From IMG/VR virus record IMGVR_UViG_2734482586_000007: 4,567 nt of DNA. The stretch is one strand, 5' to 3'. Under the pieces are notes generated by a model. That model saw only the letters and a list, made by a program, of their open reading frames with translations, searched no databases and had not been told where the DNA came from. The position numbers and the translations under genes are program-made. Below are positions 26 through 4,567 of this stretch, piece after piece. Position 1 is the first letter of the stretch; every line of letters starts with the position of its first letter. The DNA comes from a virus (taxonomy: Duplodnaviria; Heunggongvirae; Uroviricota; Caudoviricetes).

Positions 26-379
26 TTAAAAAAAGAACAAATGGTAGTGTCCGCTATTGCCAGTACACCTCAATTGCTCTGCGGCTTCGCTCAGAGCTGG
101 CGTATGTTCCCGGCCTACTGATTCACACAGGTAATCAACGAAACCGGACACCAGTTTTCGTTCGCGAGGCGTGATCGCCCCACCGACCGGAGTCCAGTAA
201 TCGAAACCCAGTTGCAGGAGTTTGAAAAAACGCTTGTGGAATGCGTAGTTACACACACGCTTAAAGTCTGCGTGTATCCACTCACCTATTTTGATTTGAT
301 GCAGAAAATCGCAACTCTCCGGCGTCGCCGGGAGAAGTAATCCGGAAGAGGTTTGTTTGACCAGTTGTATATGTGCCAT
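26..379 (-). CDS. nin-region hypothetical protein, tentatively DUF1367/YbcN-like; 117 aa as read
   Basis: Minus-strand ORF. ATG at 379-377 is preceded by GGAG about 9 nt upstream; the ORF-track start at 421 is a TTG overlapping the upstream stop and is less likely. Stop TAA at 28-26 follows a T7 run on the coding strand, so the C-terminus may be artefactually short. Family assignment rests only on a recalled N-terminal pattern (MAxIQLVK...PA.PE) and on position at the start of the nin region. Confidence 0.45.
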   Translation of the reverse strand: MAHIQLVKQTSSGLLLPATPESCDFLHQIKIGEWIHADFKRVCNYAFHKRFFKLLQLGFDYWTPVGGAITPRERKLVSGFVDYLCESVGREHTPALSEAAEQLRCTGNSGHYHLFFF

Positions 380-417
380 CGGCTTTCTCCGGTGGCACGG
401 TGTTACACAGCAGGAGT

Positions 418-705
418 TCAATCCTGCTCAAGATTGTAGATGAGTTTATTCTTCAGCAAAAGCAGAAAACCAGCCTTAAAACCAATCTCTTTCAAAACCC
501 GTAATGATGTGACAAATTCGTCCTCACGCAAAATAAAACCGTCCGTCAGAAGTCCATTACAAAAATAAAATAACACAGCACCGCTCTTCCTTTGTTGAGA
601 TTGCAAACATCTAATGCGGCAATGGCTGACAATCGCTCCATTCTCAACGCGCACAGCATAGAGGCCATTTTCACTAAAAATTTCACGCAATTCTTCGATT
701 TTCAT
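418..705 (-). CDS. hypothetical 95-aa protein, AT-rich moron-like ORF of unknown function
   Basis: Minus-strand ORF with ATG at 705-703 and GGAAGG about 9 nt upstream; stop TGA at 420-418. Visibly AT-richer than neighbouring genes (not computed). Lies directly downstream of a terminator and a promoter-like element. No family recognised. Confidence 0.55.
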   Translation of the reverse strand: MKIEELREIFSENGLYAVRVENGAIVSHCRIRCLQSQQRKSGAVLFYFCNGLLTDGFILREDEFVTSLRVLKEIGFKAGFLLLLKNKLIYNLEQD

Positions 706-786
706 CTTCAGAATCCTTCCAGATAAATAGCTCTCCCCTGTTCGGGGTCCATCCCTCTTCTCCCTGCGCGCTACTTAAGTGAGTCG

Positions 787-814
787 ATTCTATCTGCGAA
801 GGTGCGCGAATCAA
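787..814 (-). promoter_or_regulatory. putative sigma70-type promoter for the 95-aa ORF
   Basis: Minus strand reads TTGATT (plus 814-809), a 16-nt spacer, then TAGAAT (plus 792-787). It sits about 80 nt upstream of the ATG at 705 and immediately downstream of the terminator. Motif match by eye only. Confidence 0.3.
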
Positions 815-831
815 ATTCACCGGAAATAAAC

Positions 832-879
832 AACAAAAAACCCGCCGAAACGCTGAGAGATCACAGCGATGGGCGGGTT
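832..879 (-). terminator. rho-independent terminator (tR2-like position, at the replication/nin boundary)
   Basis: Plus 839-846 aacccgcc pairs with 872-879 ggcgggtt, with an inner 5-bp stem cgctg/cagcg (851-855 and 864-868). On the minus strand the stem is followed by TTTTGTTGTTTATTT (plus 838-824). Confidence 0.55.
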
Positions 880-967
880 AAGTGCGGGTGCGTTGAGGAT
901 GCCTGACACATCAGAGGTGGGCGGGGATGGGATCAGCTCCCCGCCCGGTCACTCTTACTTCCTGGAT

Positions 968-1231
968 NNNNNNNNNNNNNNNNNNNNNNNNNNNNNNNNN
1001 NNNNNNNNNNNNNNNNNNNNNNNNNNNNNNNNNNNNNNNNNNNNNNNNNNNNNNNNNNNNNNNNNNNNNNNNNNNNNNNNNNNNNNNNNNNNNNNNNNNN
1101 NNNNNNNNNNNNNNNNNNNNNNNNNNNNNNNNNNNNNNNNNNNNNNNNNNNNNNNNNNNNNNNNNNNNNNNNNNNNNNNNNNNNNNNNNNNNNNNNNNNN
1201 NNNNNNNNNNNNNNNNNNNNNNNNNNNNNNN
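968..1231. other. run of 264 N (masked or gap); content unknown
   Basis: Directly visible. ORF-track entries crossing it (869..1234, 911..1249, 927..1310, 933..1253) are artefacts of translating N. It lies between the queH-like stop (1315-1313) and the hairpin/terminator at 832-946, so it could hide one small minus-strand gene or an RNA. Confidence 0.95.
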
Positions 1232-1312
1232 TGAAGCAGATAGCCTCAAGCACCCGCAGTCATTCTACTTACCTCGCCAATATGAAATCAATCAGAAAGG
1301 TGCCCCATAAAA

Positions 1313-1999
1313 TCACTCCTTCTCTTCTTTACCGTAGTGGAGTTGACCAATTTTGATAAGAGGGCGTCCCTGAGATTTGCGGTGTAGATTGGTATCGCGC
1401 AGAGAATACACACAGCCACAATATTCCTGCTGATAGAATTTTTCGCGCTTGCTGATTTCAATCATACGGGACGAGCCGCCCTGCTTGCGCCAGTTATAAT
1501 CCCAGTACACCATGCCCGGATAATGCGCGACGGCTCGCCGCCCACAGTCGTTAACCTGCTGCATATTTTTCCAGCGTGAAATGCCCAGTGAACTGCTGAT
1601 CACACTGAAACCATTTTCAGCGGCGTACAGCGCTGTCCGCTCAAAACGCATGTCAAAACACATGGTGCAACGGATCCCTCGTTCGGGCTCCCATTCCATT
1701 CCTTTGGCTCGTTCAAACCAGTTGTCTGTGTCGTAATCAGCATCAATAAACGGCACGCCGTGTTGTTCAGCAAAGCGAATATTCTCATCCTTACGAATTA
1801 AATACTCTTTCTGAGGATGAATGTTCGGGTTGTAGAAAAAGATGGTGTAGTCGATTCCCGAGGCCTGAAGCGCCTCCATCACCTCACCGGAACATGGAGC
1901 ACAGCAAGAGTGCAGTAGTAGTTTGTTTGCCCCGTTTGGGAGCTCCAATTTGGGCCGTTTGAAATCAGCAACTGTCATAAATATGTTTATTGGGGTCAT
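1313..1999 (-). CDS. queH: QueH-like epoxyqueuosine reductase (DUF208 family), 228 aa
   Basis: Minus-strand ORF with ATG at 1999 (alternative ATG at 1978); no obvious Shine-Dalgarno for either. The translation carries cysteine-rich motifs I associate with DUF208/QueH: [33 protein letters not shown]. Stop TGA at 1315-1313. Confidence 0.75.
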
Positions 2000-2146: not shown

Positions 2147-2503
2147 TTATTCAGTTCTGGATTTTGTCGCCCTGCGTATCCGCGCTTTCGCGTTACGCTC
2201 AATCTGTATCAGCTTTTCTATATTTCTCCGCCTTTCCTGTTCCTCCTGGCGCAATAGCCTTACATCATCTGCCAGTCTGGTTTCTCTTTTTGCCACAGAG
2301 AGCATCCAGTCAAACGGCTCCACAACCGCACCGCAGATTTTACAGCGGACCTGACGCTCTTTTTCGTCAACCCGTACAGAGGCGTGATGGCAATATGGTC
2401 TTTCCGATGGCTCATAAAGAAAATTAACCTGATTACGAGGGTCATCCTCTTTTACCGGAAATAAAACGATATTGCTTAACTCATCTTCTGGTTTTATTTC
2501 CAT
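2147..2503 (-). CDS. hypothetical small protein with putative zinc-binding motif (C-H-H ... C-x2-C) and basic coiled-coil-like tail, 118 aa
   Basis: Minus-strand ORF. Preferred start is ATG at 2503-2501 with AAGGAGAGGAG 6 nt upstream. The ORF-track start at 2560 abuts the ren-like stop (TGAATG) but adds 19 residues rich in rare AGG/TTA codons. Motif: PYCHHASVRVDEKERQVRCKICGAVV. Stop TAA at 2149-2147. Confidence 0.6.
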   Translation of the reverse strand: MEIKPEDELSNIVLFPVKEDDPRNQVNFLYEPSERPYCHHASVRVDEKERQVRCKICGAVVEPFDWMLSVAKRETRLADDVRLLRQEEQERRRNIEKLIQIERNAKARIRRATKSRTE

Positions 2504-2560
2504 GCTCCTCTCCTTTGATGCGAATGCCAGCGGTAATTGAAGCCTGATAGCTAATTTCAT

Positions 2561-2983
2561 TCACAGTATCGCCTCCTGAAAATTACCCTGATAGAAAGCC
2601 AGTACACGCTGCATAGCTTCGCTCTTCCGGCACTCGCGACAGATTATATTCAGGCGCCTGTCGTAGCGGCGTATTTCTCCGTCAGGTAATGACCAGATAA
2701 GGTCCGGATCAACAACAACCGGTTTCCTCACCTTTACTCTCGAGAGTTTTTTGCGGGCGCTTTGCCAGTCCTTGCGAGCCTGTTCAGACGGGAATAAGCC
2801 GTAGCCAGAATTATATACATCACCACTTGCGACCAGTTCTATGCATAAGCGACCGACAGACGCACGACTGATACCTGTTTCATCTGACAACTGCCGAATC
2901 GTGACCCGACCGTCCTGATGCACGAGTTCCACAATTCGCGTCTTCAGTTCTTCCCGCTGTTCGGGAGTAAAAGGTTTCGCCAT
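2561..2983 (-). CDS. ren: Ren-like protein (homolog of phage lambda Ren), 140 aa
   Basis: ATG at 2983 with AGGAGG 4 nt upstream. C-terminal NIICRECRKSEAMQRVLAFYQG matches my recollection of lambda Ren (NLVFKECRQSAAMKRVLAVYG). The N-terminal half looks winged-helix-like. It sits immediately downstream of the helicase-loader gene, as ren follows P in lambda. Confidence 0.7.
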   Translation of the reverse strand: MAKPFTPEQREELKTRIVELVHQDGRVTIRQLSDETGISRASVGRLCIELVASGDVYNSGYGLFPSEQARKDWQSARKKLSRVKVRKPVVVDPDLIWSLPDGEIRRYDRRLNIICRECRKSEAMQRVLAFYQGNFQEAIL

Positions 2984-2997
2984 AAATCCTCCTGAAA

Positions 2998-3779
2998 CTA
3001 CTTAACAACCCTCGAATGGCTAACATTCGGACGCCAGCTCTCCCAGTTAAAATTCACCCAGCGCCNNNNNNNNNNNNNNNNNNNNNNNNNNNNNNNNNNN
3101 NNNNNNNNNNNNNNNNNNNNNNNNNNNNNNNNNNNNNNNNNNNNNNNNNNNNNNNNNNNNNNNNNNNNNNNNNNNNNNNNNNNNNNNNNNNNNNNNNNNN
3201 NNNNNNNNNNNNNNNNNNNNNNNNNNNNNNNNNNNNNNNNNNNNNNNNNNNNNNNNNNNNNNNNNNNNNNNNNNNNNNNNNNNNNNNNNNNNNNNNNNNN
3301 NNNNNNNNNNNNNNNNNNNNNNNNNNNNNNNNNNNNNNNNNNNNNNNNNNNNNNNNNNNNNNNNNNNNNNNNNNNNNNNNNNNNNNNNNNNNNNNNNNNN
3401 NNNNNNNNNNNNNNNNGATAGCTGCCGCTAAGTGATTCTTCCCGGTACCAGGTTTTCCGCTGAACGCAAAATTTGTACACCCGGTCATCAGTTCATCGGC
3501 GATGGATTTCGCCTGGCTTAACGCGTATCGCTGGCCGTCGTTCTGCACCTGGTAATTCGCAAACGAGCATTTACGGTGCAACGGCTGGATGCCTGAGCGA
3601 TTCAGAATTTTTTCCACCCGCAACTGGCGATTCAGGCGGTTGATCTCCTCGCTACGTTTCTGGCCTTCAGCAAGTTGCCACTCGCGCCACTCCGCTACCG
3701 TTCTGAATGGGGCGGTTACATGTGGCGGGGTCAGTCGGCGGATGCGTTCCAGAACGCCGCCTGTCGCAATATTTTTCAT
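2998..3779 (-). CDS. DnaC-family replicative helicase loader (AAA+), interrupted by the N run; the N-terminal and C-terminal parts are in different frames as given
   Basis: N-terminal part (3779 to 3417): MKNIATGG...FANYQVQNDGQRYALSQAK...FAFSGKPGTGKNHLAAAI closely resembles E. coli DnaC through the Walker A motif. C-terminal part (3065 to 2998, another frame): RWVNFNWESWRPNVSHSRVVK resembles the DnaC tail (LWVIFNWDSYRSRV) and stops at TAG 3000-2998, just before the ren RBS. The span 3779-2998 is 782 nt, which is not a multiple of 3. Confidence 0.8.
3066..3416. other. run of 351 N (masked or gap) inside the DnaC-like gene
   Basis: Directly visible. It hides the central AAA+ region (Walker B, sensor motifs). 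ORF-track entry 3016..3435 on the plus strand is an N-translation artefact. Confidence 0.95.
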
Positions 3780-4224: not shown

Positions 4225-4463
4225 TTACTCGCTCGTTTGTAACCGCCCGTTTTTTTTAGAGCTTTTTCCGTTATGACGTTCAAAGTTAGGTAGAGAAAGC
4301 CCTCCGTCATTTTCGACCAGCCATCCAACCTGAATTAACGCATCAGCAAAACCAGACATAAAAGTGATGCGATCTATTGCACTTTTTGTAACGCCGCGAG
4401 CGTTACAATCTGCATTACCGTCTATCATTTGTTGATCCGCCCATGCCCAGAAGCGAATAACCT
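4225..4463 (-). pseudogene. replication initiator, N-terminal segment; upstream boundary set by the IS end
   Basis: Frame open from the IS junction to TAA 4227-4225. The ORF-track GTG start at 4488 lies inside the putative IS terminus, so it is an artefact. The first native ATG is at 4428-4426 (MIDGNADCN...), with a weak RBS. Continuing into the linker requires a -1 shift at the A8 run (plus T8, 4250-4257). Confidence 0.5.
4386..4408. repeat. inverted repeat TTGTAACGC-cgcga-GCGTTACAA (9-bp arms) with the same core motif as the 4179-4197 palindrome
   Basis: Directly visible. Core GTAACGC at 4388-4394 and GCGTTAC at 4400-4406. Confidence 0.5.
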
Positions 4464-4567
4464 GAGGTAGCCTGAGTTTAACGGACACTCCTTCCTGAAA
4501 TAGAATGGCATCAGAAGGAGCTAATAATGAGCAGAAAAACCCAACGTTACTCTAAAGAGTTCAAAGC
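4464..4567 (+). mobile_element. left end of an IS3-family insertion sequence (IS600-like by recollection), truncated by the window edge
   Basis: A plus-strand ORF starts at ATG 4527 with AAGGAG 6 nt upstream and reads MSRKTQRYSKEFK..., which I recognise as the N-terminus of an IS3-family OrfA. A candidate terminal inverted repeat begins TGAGGTAGCC at about 4464, about 63 bp before the ATG. The exact boundary is uncertain by about 10 bp. Confidence 0.6.
4527..4567 (+). CDS. IS3-family transposase OrfA, N-terminal 13 codons only (partial)
   Basis: ATG at 4527 with AAGGAG at 4515-4520; translation MSRKTQRYSKEFK runs off the window end. Confidence 0.6.
   Translation, partial: MSRKTQRYSKEFK

Follow-up and report, generated by a model that had tools for sequence, protein, structure and literature searches.

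The gene and its family

We report that the open reading frame (ORF) of 95 amino acids (aa) found on the minus strand at positions 705–418 of the viral record IMGVR_UViG_2734482586_000007 (Caudoviricetes), a stretch of 4,567 nucleotides (nt) called the window in what follows, is most probably a rem gene, encoding a small antirepressor of Rac/Qin-type lambdoid prophages, and that this copy is a new frameshifted allele of that known antirepressor family. It belongs to the Rem family both by sequence and by position, within the gene order hok/sok, rem, DUF1367 or DUF968, Q. An earlier note on this DNA, made from the letters alone, had recognized the ORF and its Shine–Dalgarno sequence (AAGGA, 8 nt 5' of the ATG), both of which we confirm on the minus strand, and had stated that the protein matched nothing recognizable. 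The latter statement is refuted by BLASTP, which gives 68% identity over 80 aa to Rem of the K-12 Qin prophage (b1561; E 2e-34), and the 95-aa protein is likewise 64% identical to Rem of phage Rac 442/2. In a Rac prophage record retrieved by DNA search, the homologue is annotated as 'rem: prophage antirepressor', beside hok/mok and irsA (DUF1367). The protein matches phrog_340 (E 6e-20), and PF27490, the Pfam family named 'Rem', was assigned to all of the homologue clusters (77/77). The local Pfam scan of the ORF returned 0 matches, the Pfam copy used being older than PF27490, and the NCBIfam scan of the protein returned noise only. A profile search of 1.84 billion representative proteins found just 60 relatives at E<=0.001, all of them small phage proteins with the core G.VL.Y...GF.LR.DEFVTSL and some measuring 56–75 aa and devoid of the Rem N-terminus. 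The elements of the rem unit are as follows.

705–418, minus strand: rem-like gene, ATG start, 95 aa; residues 1–80 are the Rem core and residues 81–95 an out-of-frame tail
466–475, minus strand: frameshift site, GGCTGG-TTTT in the window versus GGCTGGCTTTT in K-12/Rac relatives (DNA alignments)
814–787, minus strand: sigma-70-type rem promoter, TTGATT-16-TAGAAT (promoter scan and conservation)
781–706, minus strand: rem 5' leader (alignments with relatives)
771–749, minus strand: leader core GCGCGCAGGGAGAAGAGGGATGG
752–708, minus strand: mini-upstream ORF (uORF) encoding MDPEQGRAIYLEGF, its stop 2 nt short of the rem ATG
747–735, minus strand: GC hairpin CCCC-GAACA-GGGG
380–417, minus strand: gap of 38 nt between rem and the DUF1367 gene, nearly invariant in sequence in K-12 and Rac

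Probable antirepressor function and candidate repressor

What is known of the function of the family comes from K-12, where production of Rem derepressed the DicA-repressed dicB promoter 165-fold (Ragunathan et al., 2023, PMC10448788), and where the filamentation caused by Rem needs dicB/dicF and Qin, not hokD (PMC10448788). Derepression of a DicA-controlled promoter has been demonstrated for the K-12 protein only, which was itself found by iterated searches starting from GfoA through a PSI-BLAST intermediate, and the condition that induces Rem is stated there as unknown (PMC10448788); our literature search for papers on rem regulation gave none beyond that study. In the dinI-antirepressor-irsA operon of the Gifsy prophages, the antirepressor binds a short, uncleaved repressor and displaces it from its operators (Lemire et al., 2011, PMC3121763), and these antirepressors can act on the repressors of other prophages (PMC3121763). 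According to the literature, DicA is without the Ala-Gly bond required for RecA-mediated cleavage, and the DicA-repressed dicBp of K-12 is not inducible by mitomycin C.

A candidate partner is found close to the very same allele in E. coli FDAARGOS_944 (locus L001), which carries a stretch 99.9% identical to the window and where the 95-aa allele lies 4.6 kb from the gene of a 135-aa repressor, 62% identical to DicA and 64% to the DicA of Rac 442/2. A DicA-type repressor is likewise linked to each of the 34 Rem loci at which BLAST recognized a repressor gene in the DNA examined. By likeness to these systems, the Rem core (residues 1–80) would bind DicA-type repressors at their conserved C-terminal domain, and release of the repressor from DNA would then start early transcription of the prophage. 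An antirepressor would have to appear before repression of the early operons is lifted, which would be the reason for the separate promoter of rem. The conserved leader, with its mini-uORF and GC hairpin, probably holds Rem output down until a signal other than LexA/SOS arrives.

A decayed allele

This copy of rem is a decayed allele. One C has been lost between positions 470 and 469, resulting in 95 aa instead of 83–86 aa. Members of the Rem family end in GFSAF[ES]xx, with an acidic tail, and the window protein ends in GFLLLLKNKLIYNLEQD (protein alignment). Its unshifted twin of 86 aa (P0003) is the same protein minus the frameshift. In two members of a K-12-like Rem lineage (P0044 and P0045), a frameshift of separate origin close to the same run of T leads to the same alternative reading frame, with the tail ...LLFQKNKLIYNLARG, so that the site is one of recurrent shifts. 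The window copy is intact in its 80-residue core, promoter, leader and Shine–Dalgarno sequence.

Several observations weigh against the antirepressor explanation. Through the frameshift the conserved acidic tail has been replaced, SAFAEE of the twin giving way to 15 unrelated residues that are predicted to be disordered, with a predicted local distance difference test score (pLDDT) <50. The AlphaFold2 model, a helix, four strands and a helix (alpha-beta4-alpha) followed by the disordered new tail, is of low confidence (pLDDT 61), and Foldseek gave no match in PDB or BFVD at E<=0.001. The alignment of the Rem profile with Gifsy-1 GfoA by hhalign was not significant (probability 0.9%, E 0.06). 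One locus with a window-type Rem (L125) has a repressor only 28% identical to DicA, and the window itself contains neither a repressor gene nor an immunity region, both flanking genes being cut by IS600. Direct binding of Rem to DicA is proposed here by analogy with Gifsy, and the function of the 95-aa allele is assigned by homology. Structure prediction, proposed in the earlier note, thus gave no fold match. A sequence-profile search of PDB with the ORF returned chance matches only (E>1), and the predicted fold adds no information.

The explanation that competes best is a non-functional remnant, Rem by descent and dead after the frameshift and the break-up by IS600, and we consider it doubtful. 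In its favor are the 1-nt deletion that removes the conserved tail, the low score of the new tail and the presence of IS600 on both sides of a fragment in which DUF1367 and ydaU are truncated and the immunity region is missing. It has to be set against the intact core, promoter, leader and Shine–Dalgarno sequence and against the presence of the same 95-aa allele in the apparently more complete prophage of FDAARGOS_944. Changes at this end of the protein may also be tolerable, since C-terminal 3xFLAG tags left the Gifsy and Fels antirepressors unimpaired (PMC3121763), which, these being a different family, is a weak argument. Finally, action in trans on other prophages is possible for antirepressors, and if the window rem is still active this would be its only possible mode of action, on DicA-type repressors of other prophages, as no repressor gene is present in cis within the fragment.

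Promoter, terminator and genomic slot

The promoter-like element that the earlier note had placed at 787–814 is supported by its conservation in relatives. With 9/12 consensus positions it is not significant alone (4 such sites in the window versus 3.5 expected from shuffles). Among 67 unique upstream sequences of relatives, TAGAAT is present in 66/67, and 65/67 have a TTGnnn –35 hexamer at a distance of 16 or 18 nt, while the promoter spacers belong to at least 8 sequence families with no relation to one another; hexamers kept around unconserved spacers make the promoter credible. The promoter scan found no antisense promoter. LexA boxes (CTGT-N8-ACAG, <=1 mismatch) are absent from positions 1–2874, and the two sites present in the window, at 2875 and 3869, fit chance. 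The lower G+C (guanine plus cytosine) content that had been claimed for the ORF is also borne out: 39.6%, with the same value at third codon positions (GC3 39.6%), versus 44.5%–57.4% in the neighboring genes and a window mean of 48.8%. Given the conserved promoter of its own right after a terminator, it is plausible that the prophage expresses rem without depending on the early operon. The units on either side of it are listed below.

880–1291, minus strand: hok/sok type I toxin-antitoxin module (annotation of L001 and Rfam); counted with its terminator it runs from ~1291 to 832
1291–1262, minus strand: promoter-like TTGATT-18-TAGAAT at the 5' edge of hok/sok, with the same hexamers as the rem promoter
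~1105–1280, minus strand: sok RNA (Rfam RF01794, 117 bits, at L001 5033–5208)
~955–1110, minus strand: hokD coding sequence (CDS), annotated directly upstream in the 99.9%-identical L001
879–832, minus strand: intrinsic terminator at the 3' end of hok/sok, outside the rem unit
73–379, minus strand: DUF1367 (irsA/NinB-like) gene (Pfam PF07105, E 1.5e-46, profile positions 1–102 of 198)

An Rfam scan of the window itself gave no match at E<=1, the sok RNA being detected only in the unmasked relative L001. The terminator at 879–832 is real, as had been proposed: its stem, AACCCGCC...GGCGGGTT followed by T6, folds at –24.2 kcal/mol (z = –5.7; 0/200 shuffles fold equally well). A simple terminator scan overlooked this hairpin, which has a 25-nt loop, and it was recovered by folding together with an inverted-repeat search (I2). 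In the alignment, the corresponding hairpin of K-12 and Rac relatives is a plain CCCGC-TTCG-GCGGG-T6; relative to them, the window terminator has a 23-nt loop insertion (847–871), which makes a nested GCUG...CAGC hairpin. What does not stand is its assignment to the 95-aa ORF, as it is the end of the hok mRNA and belongs to hok/sok, and there is none after the ORF: the scan of 380–417 gave no terminator-like site between rem and DUF1367. At this junction a hairpin GUGCCA-CCGGAGAAAGCCGA-UGGCAC (372–398, minus strand), without a U-tract, encloses the Shine–Dalgarno sequence and start codon of DUF1367 (–19.8 kcal/mol, z –2.2); it may control translation of DUF1367.

In every one of the prophage loci examined (132/132) the slot is filled by a small ORF, of one of three types, with the same leader; these loci were retrieved through the gene or the leader, and empty slots could not appear in the sample. 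HokD is upstream in 107/132, and the downstream gene is DUF968 (YdfU) in 97 and DUF1367 in 22. A much-diverged Rem relative (P0080) has no hok in its locus, yet keeps the order Rem-DUF1367-YbcO-Q, and a 64-aa member of the family also precedes DUF1367-YbcO-Q. The hok/sok module is variably present and is missing in some relatives, such as L017, where a Rem-family gene with the same leader follows a DUF551 gene. In Gifsy-1, gfoA lies between dinI and an irsA homologue that is 55% identical to the window DUF1367. Within these loci, the small gene ahead of DUF1367/Q appears to be a backbone slot and not optional cargo, and the variable part is the gene preceding it, be it hok/sok, dinI or DUF551. 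Among the loci collected, one contig of a Veillonella parvula metagenome-assembled genome (JAGZPX010000007.1, L007) carries an E. coli Qin-type hok-rem locus with a leader identical to that of K-12; its place in a Veillonella bin is probably due to a binning error or contamination.

The earlier note had interpreted the ORF as a moron, that is, an independently acquired terminator-promoter-gene cassette for lysogenic conversion, superinfection exclusion or defence, which we now regard as very unlikely. The promoter of its own and the low G+C are what such a cassette would have, and there is an indirect link to defence in K-12, inasmuch as Rem induces dicBF there and, according to PMC10448788, the products of dicBF give the host protection against infection by phage. 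A downstream terminator is missing, however, the upstream one is that of hok/sok, and throughout the leader- or gene-selected loci the slot holds a small ORF preceded by the shared leader. Moreover, the protein belongs to a family whose characterized function is regulatory, namely antirepression, and PADLOC defence models gave 0 families at E<=1 for the ORF. If anything here is a moron-like insert, it is the upstream hok/sok module, the owner of the terminator. That the ORF is itself a functional part of this module, for instance an extra Hok regulator, hardly deserves credence: HokD is directly upstream in most loci, but the same leader also precedes Rem-family genes at loci devoid of hok, the two units are set apart by a strong terminator and by the promoter that rem has for itself, and the K-12 Rem phenotypes need dicB/dicF, not hokD.

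The conserved 5' leader

Ahead of the rem gene, positions –72 to –1 of the leader are 90–100% conserved (50 unique loci selected by protein), compared with 18–32% in the adjacent promoter spacer. The conserved block, at 735–792 of the window, goes from the –10 hexamer through a core of ~45 nt and is also found in L003, L002, L017, L018, L089 and others. The succession of CTTAAGTAGCGCGCAGGGAGAAGAGGGATGG and CCCC-loop-GGGG is kept in P0080 and before small ORFs of two other types, of 57 and 55 aa (see below), and there are mosaic breakpoints on either side of the ~45-nt core, which argues for selection on the core itself. This core comprises a purine-rich Shine–Dalgarno-like tract followed after 7 nt by an invariant AUG, at the foot of the GC hairpin. 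The stem of the hairpin is retained and its loop is free to vary, with C-to-U changes in the 5' arm that preserve G-U pairs, as expected of a hairpin formed by RNA of the rem strand.

Two candidates for what the leader might encode were rejected. A conserved leader peptide does not agree with a uORF that may be as short as 3 codons or be fused in frame to the main ORF, and whose frame shifts with insertions and deletions in the loop, only M-x-P being constant. A lambda-type nut site is not compatible with the loops of other lineages (UUAA, GAA, UUCA, AUAA), and no boxA precedes the hairpin; the GAAAA and GAACA pentaloops of some variants resemble boxB. The leader matched no Rfam family. Its GGA motifs are presumably like the CsrA binding consensus, and complementary trans-acting RNAs were found neither in the window nor in L001, L014, L003 or L002.

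Conservation extends into the gene. The first 68–70 nt of the rem CDS are 96–100% identical in ~290 E. coli genomes that are without the rest of the allele, and in most pairwise allele comparisons, which involve small numbers, synonymous codons are kept more in codons 1–23 than in the C-terminal core. A long-range helix between GCGCGCAG of the leader and CUGUGCGC of the CDS (codons 16–18) appears in minimum-energy and consensus folds; compared with synonymous and codon-order shuffles it is marginally better in Rem and the 57-aa type (4–23/300, once 0) and no better in the 55-aa type or P0080. The –10 hexamer and ~45-nt core might tentatively be seen as a dedicated control element of prophage antirepressors, a possibility to which we do not commit ourselves. 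If true, the element would be where a non-SOS induction signal of Rac/Qin-type prophages is read, and the proteins of 55 and 57 aa would add new antirepressors that recognize the repressor C-terminal domain.

Small-ORF types and repressor C-termini

Apart from Rem itself, the slot can hold an ORF of 57 aa (L011, L024 and L139; MKIEELREIFSEDGLYAVRVENGGITYTALIPDDHVVLSVEAFIEYLERLGFKVVRE, phrog_340), which is related to Rem, or one of 55 aa (L089, L051, L067 and L043; MNDKELIAALSIPGNYEVIVLENGEFIVMPLP..., phrog_34610), which is not. These types were compared with the repressors at loci with a recognizable repressor gene in the examined DNA. Rem goes with DicA-type C-termini, LP.SEQ...RARV, in 23/23 cases by motif and in 33/34 by BLAST, across at least 4 helix-turn-helix (HTH) variants. 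The 57-aa type goes with the C-terminus LP.SEKAKL (2/2), and the 55-aa type with PPVE..NML (6/6), including two quite different N-terminal DNA-binding domains. This pairing has to be read with small numbers, within-prophage linkage as a confounder and the exception of L125. It suggests that the 57-aa and 55-aa proteins may be alternative antirepressors, and it fits antirepressors that recognize the C-terminal domain of the repressor and cross-react among heteroimmune phages, as with Gifsy. Co-variation of Rem, allele by allele, with the DNA-binding domain of DicA was not found, alleles and HTH variants being shuffled.

The prophage fragment

The window is the early-right region of a Rac/Qin-type lambdoid prophage, with every gene on the minus strand, and consists of a 4.4-kb fragment flanked by two copies of IS600, which truncate the DUF1367 gene at one end and ydaU at the other. 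Its remaining features are these.

1–72 and ~4463–4567: IS600 ends, both in the same orientation
1313–1999, minus strand: QueH (epoxyqueuosine reductase) gene, among the prophage early genes
2147–2560, minus strand: zinc-ribbon ORF
2561–2983, minus strand: DUF977/Ren-like gene
3054–3779, minus strand: ydaV/dnaC-like gene, part of it masked as N
4225–4488, minus strand: ydaU-like ORF
961–1231 and 3066–3416: N runs, the first over hokD/mok and part of sok, the second inside the ydaV/dnaC-like gene

The DUF1367 gene is cut by IS600 after ~102 codons, and a full 199-aa version is found in L001. The IS600 junction at 1–72 is identical in an IMG/VR contig, and the arrangement in Shigella flexneri is similar; the window itself is probably a short-read contig with ends falling in IS600 repeats. 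The QueH gene is a candidate auxiliary tRNA-modification gene. The prophage of FDAARGOS_944 appears more complete, with integrase, repressor, Q and lysis genes in addition to the same 95-aa allele, and the identical 95-aa sequence is on record, from ~1000 contigs, as a Shigella sonnei hypothetical protein.

The main value of the analysis is a correction, in that a supposed moron or defence candidate is of a known antirepressor type. Prophages of Shigella and E. coli broken by IS elements may keep orphan antirepressors that cross-induce other DicA-type prophages, which could include carriers of dicBF-type cell-division inhibitors. The promoter-plus-leader block provides a concrete element for studying Rem induction, and both the conserved leader and the cassette-like pairing of ORF types with repressor subtypes are worth following.

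Comparison with known systems

The closest system is Rem of the K-12 Qin prophage, with which the window shares hokD upstream, a late-regulator region downstream, the promoter hexamers and the leader, as well as a 135-aa DicA-type repressor in related prophages. The two proteins differ in length (83 aa in K-12 and 95 aa in the window, the last 6 residues being replaced by 15) and by a 4-residue insertion (QSQQ) in the middle of the window protein. The gene after rem is DUF1367 in the window and DUF968 (YdfU) in K-12, and, unlike in Qin, the window copy lies in an IS600-bounded fragment with neither dicA nor dicC.

The likeness to the Gifsy antirepressors GfoA, GftA and GfhA is one of position and target: their genes lie directly before irsA (DUF1367), outside the immunity region, and these small proteins act on short, non-cleavable repressors of the DicA/GfoR type, as Rem likewise would. 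GfoA, however, belongs to PHROG 4847 and the window Rem to PHROG 340, and the Gifsy genes follow dinI and are controlled by LexA, whereas the window rem follows hok/sok and has its own promoter and no LexA box.

Tum of phage 186, AntC of N15 and Ant of P22 are also made from separately controlled promoters, and they inactivate the repressor by binding, not cleavage; Tum and AntC are under LexA, and P22 ant is under Mnt, Arc and the sar antisense RNA. All three are larger and unrelated, the window Rem being without similarity to them in Pfam, PHROGs or PDB. Morons, as conceived from HK97 and HK022, have their own promoter, their own downstream terminator and a deviant composition within a phage operon. 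The window rem shares with them the promoter and the deviant base composition and, unlike them, has no downstream terminator, sits in what appears to be a conserved backbone slot and belongs to a family with a regulatory function.

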